DNA from: Betaproteobacteria bacterium
GTDB taxonomy: Bacteria; Pseudomonadota; Gammaproteobacteria; Burkholderiales; CAIKXV01
Assembly (NCBI GenBank): GCA_021298815.1
Contig: JAJTHE010000040.1
Coordinates: 3,999-67,998, forward strand
Direction: 5' to 3'
DNA length: 64,000 bases
Made by a program: the position numbers and the translations under genes. Positions 11,800 through 18,296 of the stretch are shown here, piece after piece. Within the stretch, counting starts at the first letter, position 1; each line of letters opens with the position of its first letter. Below the pieces are notes generated by a model. It was not told the DNA's origin and did no database searches. It saw only the letters and a program-made list of their open reading frames with translations.

Positions 11800-13095
11800 T
11801 CAGCGCGCGGCGGCGGCCGTGGCGGGGACGGCGAATGCCGGCTCGCGCCCGAGGTAGCCGGCGATGACCCAGGCATAGACCTTCGCCGCGTCGAACACCT
11901 TGTCGACCGAGGCCAGGTCGAGGTCGGTGTGCGCGAACGACTGCTCGCCGGGACCGAAGTTGGCGGTGGGGATGCCCACGTGGTTCAGGTAGCCCTGGTC
12001 ATGCGCGGACTGCCCGTAGAAGGTGCCGACCTCGCGCGCGAGCATCGCGCTGCAGCCGGCCTGCAGCAGCCGGGCCGGCAGCGAGTCCTCGGAGACCAGG
12101 CTCGGGTACATGTAGGCACCAGCCTCGACGTCCACCCGGAACGGCTTGCCGGAGATCGGATCGGGCCAGTCGTCCATCGAGCGCGCCACCGCCTCGATGC
12201 GGGCCACCGCCGCCTGCGGATCGTCGCCGGGGAGCAGGCGCTGGTCGAGCTTCACCACGCACCTGCCCTGCACCGTGTGGGTCGACTTCGGGAAGCTCTC
12301 GATGCCGTTGCAGGTGAGCCAGGCCGTACCCAGGCCCGCGTGGCTGAGGGTGTTCGGGATCTCGATCGCCAGCCGGCGCAGGAACTCCATCGCGCCGACG
12401 ATCGCGTTCGCGCCTTCGTTCGGCCGGCTGGAATGGCTGGGCGACCCGTTCACCGTGGCGGTGACGTCGACGCGGCCGCGGTTACCGAGCTGCAGCTGCA
12501 TCGCGTTGCCGTAGACATAGGCGAGGTCGGCGCGCACGCCCTCCTTCTCGACCACATGGCTGATCGCCAGCGGATTTCCGGTCTCGCCGGACACCAGGCA
12601 GAGCAGCACCAGCCGACCGTCCAGCACGACGCCGGCATCGCGCACCGCCTCGATCGCATGGATCACCGCGGCCAGCGTGCCCTTCTGCTCGCTCGCGCCC
12701 TTGCCCAGCACCGCCTCGCCCGGCATGCCGTGCGGACGGCCGTCGATGATCGTGGCGCCGTACGGATCGGGCATCGTGTTGGGCGGCTGGTTCATCGCAT
12801 GCATCACCAGCATCAGCGAGCGCGAAGCATCCGGCGGCCCCATCTCGGCGATCATGTTGCCCAGCGCATCCTGGCGCACCCGCGTGAAGCCGAGCCCTGC
12901 CATGCGCGGGACCATCGCGGTGCGGATGAACTCGCGCAGCTGCGGCTCGGCCTCCAGCAGGTCGGTCTGCGGGCTGGGCACGCGCAGCACCTCCTGCAGC
13001 ACGGTGCGCGCCCGCTCGTACGACAGGACCGGCGCGAGCTTCGCGGCCAGTGCCTGCGCGGCGCCCGACAGGGTGTTGCGTTCCGATTCGCTCAT
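11800..13095 (-). CDS. M20-family metallopeptidase/deacylase
   Basis: 431-aa track ORF with M20-like segments (LMLVMHAMNQ, GKGASEQKGTLAAVIHAIEAV, VSGETG, NGSPSHSSRP). It is a paralogue-like relative of the gene at 213..1508. Confidence 0.8.
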   Translation of the reverse strand: MSESERNTLSGAAQALAAKLAPVLSYERARTVLQEVLRVPSPQTDLLEAEPQLREFIRTAMVPRMAGLGFTRVRQDALGNMIAEMGPPDASRSLMLVMHAMNQPPNTMPDPYGATIIDGRPHGMPGEAVLGKGASEQKGTLAAVIHAIEAVRDAGVVLDGRLVLLCLVSGETGNPLAISHVVEKEGVRADLAYVYGNAMQLQLGNRGRVDVTATVNGSPSHSSRPNEGANAIVGAMEFLRRLAIEIPNTLSHAGLGTAWLTCNGIESFPKSTHTVQGRCVVKLDQRLLPGDDPQAAVARIEAVARSMDDWPDPISGKPFRVDVEAGAYMYPSLVSEDSLPARLLQAGCSAMLAREVGTFYGQSAHDQGYLNHVGIPTANFGPGEQSFAHTDLDLASVDKVFDAAKVYAWVIAGYLGREPAFAVPATAAAAR

Positions 13096-13142
13096 CGCTG
13101 GCTGCCTGTTCTATAGTCGGTCCATCCACCGGAGAGTCTATC

Positions 13143-14615
13143 TTGAGTTCACTGCTGATTCGAGACGCCGCGATCCTCACCCTCGACCGGGACGACCGGT
13201 ACCTCGCGCGCGGCGACATCCATGTCGTGGATGGACGCATCGTCTCGGTGCACGCCGCCGGCGACGCAGGCGGCGGGCCGGGCACGCGCGGCACCGACGG
13301 CGCGCCCGCGGCCGACCGCGTGGTCGATGGACGCGGACTGCTGGCCGCGCCGGGGCTCGTCAATGCACATACGCATTCGCCGGGGGCGCTGCTCGCCGGC
13401 ACCATGGATACCGAGAGCCATCCGGCCTTCATGTGGCTGAACCAGGCGGACACCAGCGGGCGCACCCCGCAGGAGGTCTACATCAGCGCGATGCTCAACG
13501 CGGTGCAGATGCTGCTCGCGGGCGTGACCACCGCGATCGACCATTTCCCCGCGCAGAACTTCGGGCCCGAGGACATCGCCGCGGCGACGCGCGCCTATGC
13601 GGACAGCGGGATGCGCATGGTGCTCGCGGTACGCATCTTCGACGACACCTTCGGCGACATCTTCCCGCGCGACACGAAGCTGCCGCCCGACCTGGAACGC
13701 GAGCTCGCCCGGGTCGCCCCGCTGCCGCCGAAGCCGCTGGCGCAGACGCGCGAGCTGACCGAGGACGCGATCGCCCGCTACCACGCGCCGGCGCGGCGCC
13801 TGTCGGTGTTCCCCGCCCCGACCAACCCGGTGCGCTGCACCGACGCCCTGCTCGAGATGAGCCGCGACATCGCCGAGCGCTTCGGCGTGGGCATCCATAC
13901 CCACCTGCTGGAATCGAAGGTGCAGACCCGGCTCGCGCAGGAGCGCCACGGCTGCACGATGGTCGAGCACCTCGAACGGCTGGGGATGCTGTCGCCGAAG
14001 CTGTCCTGCGCGCACACCATCTGGATCGACGACCCGGACATCGAGCGGCTGGCCCGCCATGGCGTGGTGGTGGTGCACAACCCGGAGAGCAACCTGAAGC
14101 TCGGCACCGGCATCGCGCCGATCGGGCGCATGGTCGCCGCCGGGGTGACCGTCGCGCTGGGCAGCGACGGCAACGTCACCAACGACAACCAGCAGCTGCA
14201 CGAGGCGATGCGCCTCGCCGCCTGCCTGGGCCGGGTGGTCGAACCGGACCGGCGCAAGTGGGTCACCGCCCGGCAGGCGCTGGCGATGGCCACGCGCGGC
14301 GGTGCCGCCGCCGCGCAGCTCGCCGACATCGGCCGGATCGAGGCTGGCTGCCGCGCCGACATCGTCCTGTACGACCTGTCACGGCCCGAGTGGACGCCGG
14401 TCAACGACCCGGTGCGGCAGATGGTGTTCTCGGAGACCGGCGCCTCGGTGCACACGGTGGTGGTCGACGGCCGCGTGCTGGTCGAGGCGGGACGCATCAC
14501 CGCGTTCGACGCGGCCGCGGTGATCGCCGAAGCGAAGCCGATGCTGGCGGCGATCCGCGAACGTAACCGCGACCTCTACGCATTCGCCCGCCGGATGGGC
14601 GAGCTGTTCCCCTGA
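13143..14615 (+). CDS. Amidohydrolase-superfamily enzyme (aminohydrolase/deaminase/chlorohydrolase-like)
   Basis: Track ORF 13050..14615 trimmed to TTG 13143, which has GGAGAG SD 6 nt upstream (MSSLLIRDAAILTLD). Metal-binding His motifs VNAHTHSPG and GIHTHLLES are present, plus VVHNPESNLKLGTG and GSDG. Confidence 0.85.
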   Translation: MSSLLIRDAAILTLDRDDRYLARGDIHVVDGRIVSVHAAGDAGGGPGTRGTDGAPAADRVVDGRGLLAAPGLVNAHTHSPGALLAGTMDTESHPAFMWLNQADTSGRTPQEVYISAMLNAVQMLLAGVTTAIDHFPAQNFGPEDIAAATRAYADSGMRMVLAVRIFDDTFGDIFPRDTKLPPDLERELARVAPLPPKPLAQTRELTEDAIARYHAPARRLSVFPAPTNPVRCTDALLEMSRDIAERFGVGIHTHLLESKVQTRLAQERHGCTMVEHLERLGMLSPKLSCAHTIWIDDPDIERLARHGVVVVHNPESNLKLGTGIAPIGRMVAAGVTVALGSDGNVTNDNQQLHEAMRLAACLGRVVEPDRRKWVTARQALAMATRGGAAAAQLADIGRIEAGCRADIVLYDLSRPEWTPVNDPVRQMVFSETGASVHTVVVDGRVLVEAGRITAFDAAAVIAEAKPMLAAIRERNRDLYAFARRMGELFP

Positions 14616-14675
14616 CGCGCAGCCTGCCATCGCGTTCGTACCCGTTCCCCACCACCACCGAGACAGGAGACCCCG

Positions 14676-15098
14676 ATGGCCGACGTCGTGCCGCACCTCA
14701 AGCTCACCCATGAAGGCGCCATGAAGATGCTGGCCGCAGGCATGGCGAAGGCGAAGGCGATGGGCCAGGACCAGTGCATCACCATCGTCGACGACGGCGG
14801 ACACCTGCTCGCCTTCGTGCGCATGGACGGCGGCCGCGTGCTATCCACCCACACGTCGCGCAAGAAGGCGATGACCGCCGCGTCCAACCGAAAGCCGACC
14901 GGCAGCCTCGATCCGGCCAACGAGGTGAAGCTGGCGATCGCCTCGGACGGCATGATGACCAACCTGATGGGCGGGCTGCCGATCATCGTCGACGGCCATG
15001 TGATCGGCGCGGTGGGCGTTGGCTCCGGCACCGGCGAGCAGGACCTCGAAGTGGCGAAGGCGGCCATCGCCGCGCTGCCGGGGGCGCAGGCCTTCTGA
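14676..15098 (+). CDS. GlcG/HbpS-like (DUF336) haem-binding-type protein
   Basis: 140-aa track ORF. LTHEGAMKMLAAGMAKAKAMG..ITIVDDGGHLLAFVRMDG..GGLPIIVDGHVIGAVGVGSGTGEQD is the typical family pattern. AGGAGA SD is present. Confidence 0.85.
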   Translation: MADVVPHLKLTHEGAMKMLAAGMAKAKAMGQDQCITIVDDGGHLLAFVRMDGGRVLSTHTSRKKAMTAASNRKPTGSLDPANEVKLAIASDGMMTNLMGGLPIIVDGHVIGAVGVGSGTGEQDLEVAKAAIAALPGAQAF

Positions 15099-15217
15099 GG
15101 CGGGGCCGCCGCCGGGCCGGGCGGCGGGCGGCGTCGCTGCGCCGGCAGGAAGGTGGGCACGCTGGACACGCCGCCCGGGATTGCCTGCCCCGACAGCCGG
15201 GCGGAGGATCCGGAAAC

Positions 15218-15242
15218 TTCAGGAATTCCTGAAATTTCAGGA
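15218..15242. promoter_or_regulatory. Triple half-site operator candidate TTCAGGA-AT-TCCTGAA-AT-TTCAGGA
   Basis: Read directly. It comprises two overlapping perfect 16-bp palindromes (15218-15233 and 15227-15242) in an AT-rich patch 50 nt upstream of the GbsR-type regulator ATG. Confidence 0.55.
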
Positions 15243-15292
15243 TCGAGGTTGTCCTGCGCCTGTCCAGCGCCGGCTGCCCGACCCTTGCCGCC

Positions 15293-15871
15293 ATGGAAAC
15301 ACTGCCGCCGCTGGTCCGCGATTTCGTCCTGCACTTCGGGGAAATGGGCAGCCGCTGGGGGATCAACCGCACCGTCGGGCAGATCTACGCGCTGCTGTTC
15401 GTGTCGCCACGCCCGCTCAACGCCGACGAGATCGCCGAAGCCCTGGGCTTTTCGCGCTCCAACGTCAGCATGGGCCTCAAGGAACTGCAGTCGTGGCGGC
15501 TGACCCAGCCGCACCACCTGCCCGGCGACCGCCGTGAATACTTCGCCGCCCCGCAGGACGTGTGGACGATCTTCCGCACCCTGGCGGAGGAACGGAAGAA
15601 GCGCGAGGTCGAGCCGACGCTCACCATGCTGCGCGGCGCGCTGCTGCAGACGCCGTCGGGCGACGCCGAGCGCCATGCCCAGCAGCGGATGCGCGAGATG
15701 CATGATCTGGTGGAACTGATCACGTTGTGGTTCGACGACGTCGGCAAGCTGGATCCGGCTACGCTGGTGCCGCTGATGAAGATGGGTTCCACGGTCGCAA
15801 AGGTCCTCGAGATGAAGCAGAAGATCACCCAGCTGGCCGGCGGCAGGCAACGCACCGTCGCCGCCGAATGA
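15293..15871 (+). CDS. GbsR/MarR-family winged-helix transcriptional regulator
   Basis: 192-aa track ORF. FVLHFGEMGSRWGINRTVGQIYALLFVSPRPLNADEIAEALGFSRSNVSMGLKELQSW matches the GbsR-type N-terminal wHTH as I remember it. It ends 15 nt before cydA. Confidence 0.8.
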   Translation: METLPPLVRDFVLHFGEMGSRWGINRTVGQIYALLFVSPRPLNADEIAEALGFSRSNVSMGLKELQSWRLTQPHHLPGDRREYFAAPQDVWTIFRTLAEERKKREVEPTLTMLRGALLQTPSGDAERHAQQRMREMHDLVELITLWFDDVGKLDPATLVPLMKMGSTVAKVLEMKQKITQLAGGRQRTVAAE

Positions 15872-15886
15872 CCGGGAACCGCAGCC

Positions 15887-17272
15887 ATGCTCGAGTCCGC
15901 CATCACCGCCGCAGCCACCCCCGACGCGCTGCTGCTCGCACGCATACAGTTCGCGGCCAACATCACGTTCCACATCCTGTTCCCGACGATCACCATCGCG
16001 CTCGCCTGGGTGCTGCTGTTCTTCAAGCTGCGCTTCAACGCCACCGGCGATGCGAAGTGGATGGATGCGTACTATTTCTGGGTGAAGGTGTTCGCCCTGA
16101 CCTTCGCGTTGGGCGTAGTCAGCGGCATCACGATGAGCTTCCAGTTCGGCACCAACTGGCCGGGCTTCATGGAGACGGTCGGCAACATCGCCGGGCCCCT
16201 GCTCGCCTACGAGGTGCTCACCGCCTTCTTCCTCGAGGCGACCTTCCTCGGCATCATGCTGTTCGGCTACCAGCGTGTGGGCAACCGCATGCACACGGTC
16301 GCCACGGTGCTGGTGGCCTTCGGCACGTCCATGTCGGCGTTCTGGATCCTGGTGCTGAACTCGTGGATGCACACGCCGGCCGGCTTCGAGATGATCGACG
16401 GCAAGGCGCATGCCACGGACTGGCTGGCGATCGTGTTCAACCCGTCGCTGCCCTATCGGCTCACCCACATGATGATCGCCTCCGGGCTGACCGTCGCCTT
16501 CCTGGTCGCAGGCATCAGCGCATGGCGCCTGCTGCGCGGCGATCGCACGCCCGCGGTGATGGCGACGCTGAAGGTCGGGACCTGGCTGGGTGCGATCCTG
16601 ATCCCGCTGCAGATCGTGGTCGGTGACCTGCACGGGCTCAACACGCTCGAACACCAGCCGGCGAAGATCGCTGCGATCGAAGGCGTCTGGGAGACCGAAC
16701 GCGGTGCGCCACTGCTGCTGTTCGCGCTGCCCAACGCGCAGACCCGCAGCAACGACTACGCGCTGGGCGTGCCCAACCTCGCGTCGCTGATCCTCACCCA
16801 TGAATGGGACGGTGAGCTGAAGGGCCTGTCCGAGTTCGACGGCATGCATCCGCCGGTGGCCCCGGTGTTCTGGGCGTTCCGCATCATGGTCGGCACCGGC
16901 CTGCTGATGCTGGCGGTGTCGTGGTTCGCGGCCTGGCGGTTGCGGCGCGACGGCACCGTGCCGCCGGCACTGGCGCGGGTGATGGTGGTGATGACCTTCT
17001 CCGGCTGGGTGGCGACGGTGTCGGGCTGGTACGTGACCGAGATCGGACGCCAGCCCTGGCTGGTGCAGGGCGTACTGTCCACGGCCGATGCCGCCTCCGC
17101 CGTACCGGCGGCGGCCGTAGGAACCACCCTCGCCCTCTACCTGACCCTGTACGTGCTGCTGCTGGCCGCCTATGTCGGCGCCCTCTTCCACCTGGCGCGC
17201 AAGGGTGACCGCTCCAGTGCACCGGGCACGCCAGCGACCGGTGCCGCGGTCGCCGGCGGCCTGCGCGCCTGA
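15887..17272 (+). CDS. cydA: Cytochrome bd-type ubiquinol oxidase subunit I (short form, CIO-like)
   Basis: 461-aa track ORF with the typical CydA N-terminus LLLARIQFAANITFHILFPTITIALAWVLLFF and a polytopic membrane profile. The short length suggests a short Q-loop (cyanide-insensitive type). Confidence 0.9.
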   Translation: MLESAITAAATPDALLLARIQFAANITFHILFPTITIALAWVLLFFKLRFNATGDAKWMDAYYFWVKVFALTFALGVVSGITMSFQFGTNWPGFMETVGNIAGPLLAYEVLTAFFLEATFLGIMLFGYQRVGNRMHTVATVLVAFGTSMSAFWILVLNSWMHTPAGFEMIDGKAHATDWLAIVFNPSLPYRLTHMMIASGLTVAFLVAGISAWRLLRGDRTPAVMATLKVGTWLGAILIPLQIVVGDLHGLNTLEHQPAKIAAIEGVWETERGAPLLLFALPNAQTRSNDYALGVPNLASLILTHEWDGELKGLSEFDGMHPPVAPVFWAFRIMVGTGLLMLAVSWFAAWRLRRDGTVPPALARVMVVMTFSGWVATVSGWYVTEIGRQPWLVQGVLSTADAASAVPAAAVGTTLALYLTLYVLLLAAYVGALFHLARKGDRSSAPGTPATGAAVAGGLRA

Positions 17273-17273
17273 C

Positions 17274-18296
17274 ATGGACTACGCGATGCCGGACCTGTCC
17301 ACGCCGGCCGGATGGCTGCCCGTGGTGTTTCTCGCCCTGATGGGCATCTCGATGCTCGCCTACGTGGTGCTGGACGGCTACGACCTCGGCGTCGGCCTGC
17401 TGCTGCGCCACGCATGCGACGCGGACAAGGATCGGATGATCGCGTCCATCGGCCCCTTCTGGGATGCCAACGAGACGTGGCTGGTGCTCGGCGTCGGCCT
17501 GATGCTGACCGCCTTCCCGCTGGCCCATGGCGTGGTGCTGTCCGCACTCTACCTGCCGGTCGCCGCGATGCTGATCGGGCTCACCCTGCGCGGTGTCGCG
17601 TTCGAGTTCCGCGCCAAGGCCGATGCCGCTCACAAGCACCGGTGGAACCTCGCCTTCTTCGCCGGCTCGCTGCTCGCCACCTTCGCCCAGGGCACGATGC
17701 TGGGCTGGTACATCCTCGGCTTCGACCCCGGCACCGGCAGCCTGCTGTTCGCCATGTTCACCGGCTTCGCCCTGTGCGCCGGCTACGGGCTGCTCGGCGC
17801 GACCTGGCTGATCCTCAAGACCGAGGGCGAACTGCAGGTGCACGCGGTCCGCTGGGCCCGGTCCACGCTGTGGGCGACGGCCGCCGGCGTGGCCGCCATT
17901 TCGTTGGCCACGCCGCTGGTCAGCCCGCGCATCTTCGAGAAATGGTTCAGCCTGCCGAACGTGATCGGGCTTGCGCCGATCCCTCTGGCGACGACCGCGC
18001 TGTTCCTGGTGACCGCGACCTTCCTGCAGCGGCTGCCGGCCGCCGAGGATCGCTGGTGCTGGGTGCCCTTCGCCGCGACCGTCGGCGTGTTCGTGCTGGC
18101 CTTCCTCGGCCTCGCCTACAGCCTGTTCCCCTACCTGGTCGTCGACCGCATCACCATCTGGCAGGCGGCCAGCGCGCCGGAGTCGCTGATGATCATCCTG
18201 GTCGGGGCCGCGGTCGTGTTGCCTACCATCTTCGGCTACACCGTCTATGCCTACCGCGTGTTCCGCGGCAAGGCACGCGAGCTCACCTACCTCTGA
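17274..18296 (+). CDS. cydB: Cytochrome bd-type ubiquinol oxidase subunit II
   Basis: Track ORF 17172..18296 trimmed to ATG 17274, 1 nt after the cydA stop. MDYAMPDLSTPAGWLPVVFLALMGISMLAYVVLDGYDLGVG is the CydB hallmark. Confidence 0.9.
   Translation: MDYAMPDLSTPAGWLPVVFLALMGISMLAYVVLDGYDLGVGLLLRHACDADKDRMIASIGPFWDANETWLVLGVGLMLTAFPLAHGVVLSALYLPVAAMLIGLTLRGVAFEFRAKADAAHKHRWNLAFFAGSLLATFAQGTMLGWYILGFDPGTGSLLFAMFTGFALCAGYGLLGATWLILKTEGELQVHAVRWARSTLWATAAGVAAISLATPLVSPRIFEKWFSLPNVIGLAPIPLATTALFLVTATFLQRLPAAEDRWCWVPFAATVGVFVLAFLGLAYSLFPYLVVDRITIWQAASAPESLMIILVGAAVVLPTIFGYTVYAYRVFRGKARELTYL

Follow-up and report, generated by a model that had tools for sequence, protein, structure and literature searches.

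The locus described here raises the question of which protein reads a short, AT-rich array of alternating repeats that precedes a set of cytochrome bd genes, and in what arrangement it does so. The array lies in the window, the 64-kb stretch of DNA that was analysed as a whole and to which all coordinates refer, and it stands ahead of three co-oriented genes in the order regulator–cydA–cydB. An earlier note on this DNA had proposed that the array is the autoregulatory operator of the regulator gene. That proposal has since been supported by the presence of the same box at all 80 orthologous loci compared, by a published footprint of the regulator CydE together with the known repression by CioR, and by the protein family of the regulator itself. 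Very probably the element, which we refer to as the CydE box, is the operator of a CydE/CioR-type repressor whose gene is the next one downstream. The genes concerned are as follows.

15293 to 15871, plus strand: cydE/cioR-type regulator gene, 192 aa, GbsR-type winged-helix protein of the MarR superfamily
15887 to 17272, plus strand: cydA/cioA, cytochrome bd subunit I, 461 aa, short form (Pfam Cyt_bd_oxida_I, E=3e-161)
17274 to 18296, plus strand: cydB/cioB, cytochrome bd subunit II, 340 aa (Pfam Cyt_bd_oxida_II, E=3e-84 for the containing ORF)

The regulator and its genomic setting

The three genes are closely packed. The distances given in the earlier note, 50 nt from the element to the regulator ATG (15293) and 15 nt from the regulator stop codon (15871) to the cydA ATG (15887), are correct, and the cydB ATG lies 1 nt past the cydA stop codon; this last start was taken from the sequence, and cydB homologues in relatives are 336–340 aa long.

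The regulator matches the Pfam family MarR_2 (E=2e-8), and its best match by sequence in the PDB is Mj223 (1ku9, E=2e-12), the structural template of the GbsR family. The same entry is the top Foldseek match (E=4e-9) of its AF2 model (pLDDT 86). As judged from these sequence matches and from the predicted structure, the fold is that of a GbsR/Mj223-like winged-helix protein of the MarR superfamily. The regulator has more than 8000 homologues, most of them named 'GbsR/MarR family'.

A 'CydE' subgroup of 34 GbsR-type proteins adjoining cydAB was described by Ronzheimer et al. in 2018; such proteins are ~19–21% identical to GbsR and are without the aromatic cage that binds choline (PMC6207618). 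The signature SRSNVSMGLKELQSWRL...PGDRRE...AEER[KR][KR]RE of the window regulator is common to the CydE proteins printed in Suppl. Fig. S1 of that paper. The Bacillus proteins GbsR, OpuAR and OpcR are repressors that respond to choline or glycine betaine (Nau-Wagner 2012; Ronzheimer 2018, PMC6207618). They share with the CydE type the Mj223-like winged-helix, MarR-type dimer family and the principle of a repressor released by a small ligand, but they are linked to opu and gbs genes, whereas the CydE-type proteins are linked to cydAB. When compared with the osmoprotectant-regulator class, the window regulator scored only 49.8 bits against the NCBIfam CudC model, whose cut-off is 218, and its neighbours in the window are cydAB, an HbpS-like gene and an amidohydrolase gene, with no linkage to opu, gbs or cud genes.

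The surroundings of the operon are shared with the closest relatives (loci L081–L089; window 13050–15098), where the order is M20 peptidase (minus strand), amidohydrolase, HbpS-like gene, cydE, cydA, cydB and MBL-fold hydrolase (minus strand). HbpS-like proteins are a haem-binding or haem-degrading family, and the gene is absent from the P0005 lineage.

Anatomy of the element

Positions 15218–15242 are TTCAGGAATTCCTGAAATTTCAGGA, which reads as TTCAGGA-AT-TCCTGAA-AT-TTCAGGA, three 7-bp half-sites in alternating orientation on a 9-bp register. An inverted-repeat search returns two overlapping perfect 16-bp palindromes within it, at 15218–15233 and 15227–15242. Sequence and coordinates of the triple half-site and of both palindromes were re-read in the window and are exactly as first reported. 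The count of three half-sites was right as far as it went; a fourth, degenerate one at 15209–15215 had been overlooked. As this fourth half-site stands in register before the first, the element as a whole spans 38 bp and forms an imperfect palindrome, found by the same kind of search as a 19+19 nt inverted repeat whose arms are 89% complementary with no gap between them. The parts of the element are named as follows.

15207 to 15244, no strand: full symmetric operator, a 38-bp imperfect palindrome with the halves GATCCGGAAACTTCAGGAA and TTCCTGAAATTTCAGGATC
15217 to 15234, no strand: core CydE box, the 18-bp palindrome CTTCAGGAATTCCTGAAA, made of the convergent half-sites H1 and H2; proposed primary dimer site
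15218 to 15224: H1, TTCAGGA, half-site of the core
15227 to 15233: H2, TCCTGAA, half-site of the core
15236 to 15242, plus strand: H3, third half-site, TTCAGGA, 9 bp in register after H2
15209 to 15215, minus strand: H0, fourth half-site, TCCgGAA, degenerate (1 mismatch), 9 bp in register before H1

An equally valid parse of the 38-bp element is a tandem pair of TCCKGAAAYTTCAGGA with an 18-bp offset. Its outer ATCC...GGAT symmetry is retained in the close relatives of the window. The remark that this is the most AT-rich patch of the region also holds, with 15200–15249 being the lowest 50-nt bin of 14000–16500 at a GC fraction of 0.50, against about 68% GC in the surroundings.

Within the window the element is unique. 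Its 16-mer occurs once at up to 3 mismatches where 0.01 occurrences are expected, and the family core TTTCAGNAATTNCTGAAA, from which the window core departs by one mismatch, likewise occurs once at up to 3 mismatches (0.02 expected), the core being its sole match; these figures exclude a chance origin. Three of the 8 copies of TTCAGGA on both strands of the 64 kb fall inside the 25-bp element.

The flanking DNA holds further repeats. A leader insertion of ~14 nt, CGCCTGTCCAGCGC (15257–15270), from which the close relatives are free, forms with CGCTGGACACGC (15160–15171) a 12-nt inverted repeat that is 92% complementary, has its arms 86 nt apart and brackets the operator. Further upstream, 15100–15140 consists of nested palindromes of 94% GC right after the stop codon of the HbpS-like gene; they are probably a terminator-type hairpin without a T-run, a stretch in which the consensus terminator scan made no call.

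Characterised systems of the same type

The best studied relative is CydE of Alishewanella sp. WH16-1, where Xia et al. in 2018 found cydE, cydA and cydB to be co-transcribed and repressed by the GbsR-type protein CydE (PMC6096048). DNase I footprinting of CydE on the cydEAB promoter gave the sequence TATTTCAGAAATTTCTGAAAGTTCA, and a short oligonucleotide of it was shifted too (PMC6096048). The EMSA showed two shifted species, which the authors ascribed to a separate second site, the unrelated sequence GGGATGCGCATATGCAAAT; sulfate at millimolar concentration was reported as the inducer (PMC6096048). A count of the terms 'palindrom', 'inverted repeat' and 'motif' in that paper gave 0 for each, and it left the architecture and conservation of the site undescribed (PMC6096048). 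A Bordetella CrpH paper cites Xia 2018 only and adds nothing on regulation.

The likeness of the window regulator to the Alishewanella CydE protein was traced via other CydE-group proteins. At the DNA level, window 15215–15239 is identical to the footprint at 20 of 25 positions, and the footprint agrees with the family consensus at 21 of 25. The five differences between window and footprint lie at -2, 0, 6, 11 and 18 from the core start, of which 6, 11 and 18 are variable in the family and -2 and 0 are conserved. The core lies inside the footprint, which covers H3 as well (...CTGAAAGTTCA). The two loci share the gene order and an operator with three alternating half-sites on a 9-bp register; the window differs in having the fourth half-site, which completes the 38-bp palindrome, and in being without the second footprinted site, as GGGATGCGCATATGCAAAT has 0 matches in it at up to 3 mismatches. 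The hosts also differ, a high-GC Burkholderiales-like genome in the case of the window and an Alteromonadaceae genome in that of Alishewanella. The Alishewanella footprint was also sought as an exact 25-mer in metagenome contigs, with 0 matches.

The second system is CioR of Chromobacterium violaceum, which binds to the cioRAB promoter and acts there as an autorepressor (Batista et al. 2025, PMC11837568). Cyanide induces cioRAB in a CioR-dependent yet apparently indirect manner, Zn or Fe at >=100 µM frees CioR from DNA in vitro, and the CioR operator was left unmapped (PMC11837568). The window regulator is 70–71% identical to the regulator of the Chromobacterium cioRAB-type loci L003 and L005, and the CydA proteins are 72% identical. 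These loci share with the window an orthologous regulator, the operon layout and a box upstream of the regulator gene. Their promoters differ in having an FNR-like box that abuts the CydE box and in being under OsbR and CviR control, while the window is without an FNR-like box.

In the alignment of the regulator, H14, H75, M18, M60, M136, M162, E17, D79 and E82 are invariant and H137 nearly so, and there is no cysteine in the 192-aa protein. These histidine, methionine and acidic residues, with the lack of cysteine, may bear on the release of CioR that has been reported for Zn and Fe.

Conservation of the CydE box

A scan of species-representative genomes gave 80 loci with regulators 64–75% identical to that of the window, from the Burkholderiales, Neisseriales, Rhodocyclales, the Xanthomonadales/Lysobacterales group and several Alphaproteobacteria, and so from the beta-, gamma- and alphaproteobacteria; with the window added, 81 sequences were compared. 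In 77 of these 80 the regulator gene is followed directly by a co-oriented cydA, and 2 of the exceptions are truncated contigs.

Looking for the half-site upstream of orthologous GbsR–cydAB units, a check proposed in the earlier note, found the motif at 80/80 loci in three proteobacterial classes. With the window included, the 18-bp core TTTCAGNAATTNCTGAAA precedes the regulator gene in 81/81 sequences, with 0 mismatches in 38, 1 in 28 (hence no more than 1 in 66) and 4 in the worst case. Information content is 1.4–2.0 bits at 14 of the 18 positions (T0–T2, C3, A4, A7, A8, T10 and C12–A17), and positions 6 and 11 are free to vary. The conservation profile extends from -9 to +26 relative to the core start, running 3' into the third half-site (T19, T20, C21, A22, A25) and 5' into TTnCTAnA(A)T, where most loci read a -10-like hexamer, TAnAAT, that abuts the core.

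The individual half-sites are kept to different degrees. At up to 1 mismatch, H1 is present in 80/81 loci and H2 in 81/81, and TTCAG in the H3 register in 55/81, compared with roughly 1.6% expected for a random 5-mer; the close relatives of the window keep H3 within this limit. A good H0 (up to 1 mismatch) was found in 18/81, all four half-sites in 16/81 including the window, and at least three in-register half-sites in 56/81. The window departs from most orthologues in carrying the fourth half-site in place of the -10-like hexamer beside the core, and in the distance from core start to start codon, 76 nt against about 32 nt in most of the others. Throughout the 684 kb made up by the loci and the window, no comparable independent second box exists at up to 3 mismatches. 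The remaining matches are register shifts within the same array and five 3-mismatch hits outside arrays, at least some of them coding.

The box is also met in front of unusual oxidase genes. In Thiomonas (L047) and Phenylobacterium (L071) the same regulator and box precede a divergent CydA of 42–48% identity, compared with ~72% elsewhere, and in Limnohabitans (L055) no cydA was detected downstream of regulator and box. The regulator–box module thus seems to have been paired with more than one lineage of bd oxidase.

The position of H3 in the leader bears on translation. No recognisable Shine–Dalgarno sequence precedes the regulator ATG in the window (15270–15292). Among orthologues such as L051, L072, L078, L011, L017 and L022, H3 directly abuts the ATG in several, from Arenimonas, and in others TTTGGAGAA with its GGAG stands in the place of H3, so that nucleotides of the operator double as ribosome-binding site. 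The idea that H3 is conserved merely as a ribosome-binding site was rejected, as it is kept equally well where the start codon is distant (8 of 13 loci at distances of 43 nt or more, 47 of 68 at shorter ones).

Conservation as sequence also bears on a structural explanation, in which the palindrome would be a hairpin, either a 5'-UTR stem-loop for mRNA stability or translation or a cruciform, and not a protein site. As RNA, 15207–15244 does fold to a 15-bp stem, and folding of the 91-nt leader gives -31.9 kcal/mol (MFE), but the corresponding z-score of -2.0 is unremarkable. There is no covariation, with core positions 6 and 11 being Watson–Crick complementary in only 19/81 sequences, and paired positions are conserved as sequence, not as complementarity. 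Rfam gave no match at E<=1 for 15050–15350, and the left arm would be untranscribed if the start site lies near 15216, as predicted below. We consider a hairpin extremely unlikely and return to the CydE box as a protein-binding site.

Promoter context and FNR-like boxes

The promoter proposed for the window overlaps the left end of the operator.

15181 to 15209, plus strand: putative sigma-70-type promoter, -35 TTGCCT (15181–15186), 17-nt spacer, -10 GAGGAT (15204–15209)

From these hexamers the start of transcription is predicted near 15216, at the left end of the core. Since a strict sigma-70 and terminator consensus scan of 14900–16000 found nothing, we only infer the start site in the window. 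A phylogenetic footprint was made with close relatives whose regulators are 88–94% identical and whose intergenic DNA has a mean column identity of 60%. Amid this diverged DNA the operator is invariant, together with T15181, G15183, C15184 and C15185 (the TTGCC block 15181–15185) and A15205, A15208 and T15209. In Comamonadaceae orthologues FNR-like boxes are centred 40.5–41.5 bp before the core start, which as class II spacing places the start site at about the core start. The TAnAAT hexamer abutting the core in most other lineages agrees with a start placed there. On any of these promoter readings the operator would cover the -10, the +1 and the early transcribed region. The conserved TGGACA...TTGCC blocks were also considered as a sigma-54 promoter, a reading rejected from the sequence since the GG-to-GC offset is 19 and not 12.

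Another block that is invariant in all close relatives amid diverged intergenic DNA is GCTGGACA (15161–15168), which may serve as an activator or UP-type site; it lies ~50 bp before the predicted transcription start.

FNR/Anr-like boxes (TTGAT-N4-ATCAA, up to 1 mismatch) were found in 18/81 cydE promoter regions, where about 0.9 would be expected, and they take two preferred positions relative to the CydE box. Their centre lies 8.5–9.5 bp before the core start in L003, L005, L006, L008, L010, L012, L028 and L073, and 39.5–41.5 bp before it in L024, L049, L067, L068 and L070. The more distant position, in Comamonadaceae, is class II-like. The abutting boxes belong to Neisseriales and Azoarcus; with class II spacing, transcription would there begin at the start codon, which suggests that the mRNA is leaderless or that FNR represses.

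The frequency of these boxes is one reason to ask whether another protein reads the array, for instance FNR/Anr, a MarR protein like OsbR or a regulator of quorum sensing, and the array stands beside the GbsR-type gene by mere coincidence. FNR/Anr commonly controls operons of the cyd/cio type, and in C. violaceum OsbR and CviR do so as well (PMC11837568). Where FNR boxes occur among the orthologues, though, they are elements separate from the CydE box, and the window has none at up to 1 mismatch from -160 to +30 of the core. The element was also rejected as an FNR/Anr site itself, its dyad being TTCAG-N6-CTGAA and not TTGAT-N4-ATCAA. Because box and regulator gene occur together in 81/81 sequences from three classes, and because purified CydE footprints the box directly (PMC6096048), a different factor is very unlikely, and the CydE/CioR-type repressor is retained as the protein that reads the box.

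Half-site geometry and the number of dimers

The two perfect 16-bp palindromes are not equivalent. In TTCAGGA-AT-TCCTGAA the half-sites converge (TTCAG...CTGAA) with pentamer centres 11 bp apart, while in TCCTGAA-AT-TTCAGGA they diverge (CTGAA...TTCAG) with centres 7 bp apart. A centre spacing of 11 bp corresponds to one helical turn and is usual for a winged-helix dimer. As polarity is opposite and spacing different, one dimer geometry cannot read both palindromes, and the primary dimer site was assigned to 15217–15234 since near-invariance in the family is limited to the convergent pair.

This bears directly on a model drawn from the earlier note, in which two equivalent dimer sites share the central half-site and the dimers compete or alternate. 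The model can draw on the perfect symmetry of both 16-mers, on the 56/81 loci that have three or more half-sites in register, and on the two shifted species in the CydE EMSA (PMC6096048). It is at odds with the 11-bp convergent and 7-bp divergent arrangements, and with the weaker keeping of H3 (55/81) compared with H1 (80/81) and H2 (81/81). Its three-site scheme also ignores H0, which makes the element symmetric about the convergent core, and the EMSA bands were ascribed by Xia et al. to their separate second site (PMC6096048). The palindromes are thus not equivalent as dimer sites, and the competing-dimer model is unlikely.

We tentatively put forward another possibility, which we hold to be well short of probable: that the CydE box consists of as many as four alternating half-sites, phased on a 9-bp register, and takes more than one dimer, as a central dimer with flanking ones or as a tetramer, giving a cooperative, switch-like release of the bd oxidase, and that most lineages have traded the upstream flank for a -10 hexamer. 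On such a reading promoter strength and repressor cooperativity would evolve against each other, being written in the same nucleotides. We know of no structure or stoichiometry for any CydE-type protein on DNA, and no description of a phased-array architecture or of its conservation across classes was found in the literature. The operators of OhrR, MepR and MarR are (pseudo-)palindromic half-site arrays over the -10/+1 region, sometimes with two dimers bound; their half-site sequence differs from that of the CydE box.

A model for the window and its meaning

For the window itself we infer binding, the position of promoter and start site, stoichiometry and inducer, and the mechanism we propose is as follows. 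A dimer of the 192-aa GbsR-type winged-helix protein would bind the convergent 18-bp palindrome at 15217–15234. H0 and H3, which flank the core symmetrically, would extend the contact surface or recruit additional dimers, each flanking dimer using one specific and one non-specific half-site. The occupied operator would overlap the -10/+1 region of the cydE–cydA–cydB promoter, so that bound repressor would block the binding or the escape of RNA polymerase. The outcome would be negative autoregulation: the level of the cyanide-insensitive-type cytochrome bd oxidase would stay low until the repressor is released under an inducing condition.

The earlier note had called the signal sensed by the regulator unknown. 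This stands in that no physiological ligand is established, but candidates have been reported, namely sulfate for CydE, and cyanide, acting indirectly, and Zn or Fe for CioR.

Cytochrome bd/CIO oxidases allow respiration despite cyanide, sulfide, nitric oxide and metals, and they are studied as drug targets. The present analysis assigns the cydAB genes of the window to a CydE/CioR autorepression circuit. The element is in that sense an ordinary regulatory site and a new instance of a characterised operator; what is modestly new is that the box is now defined for the whole family, that it overlaps the -10 region and that it is built symmetrically of three to four half-sites. For CioR an operator mapped by homology is now supplied. 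The box is also a defined DNA substrate for studying stoichiometry and the disputed inducer, and as one 18-bp sequence found across beta-, gamma- and alphaproteobacteria it provides a search pattern for annotating these operons.
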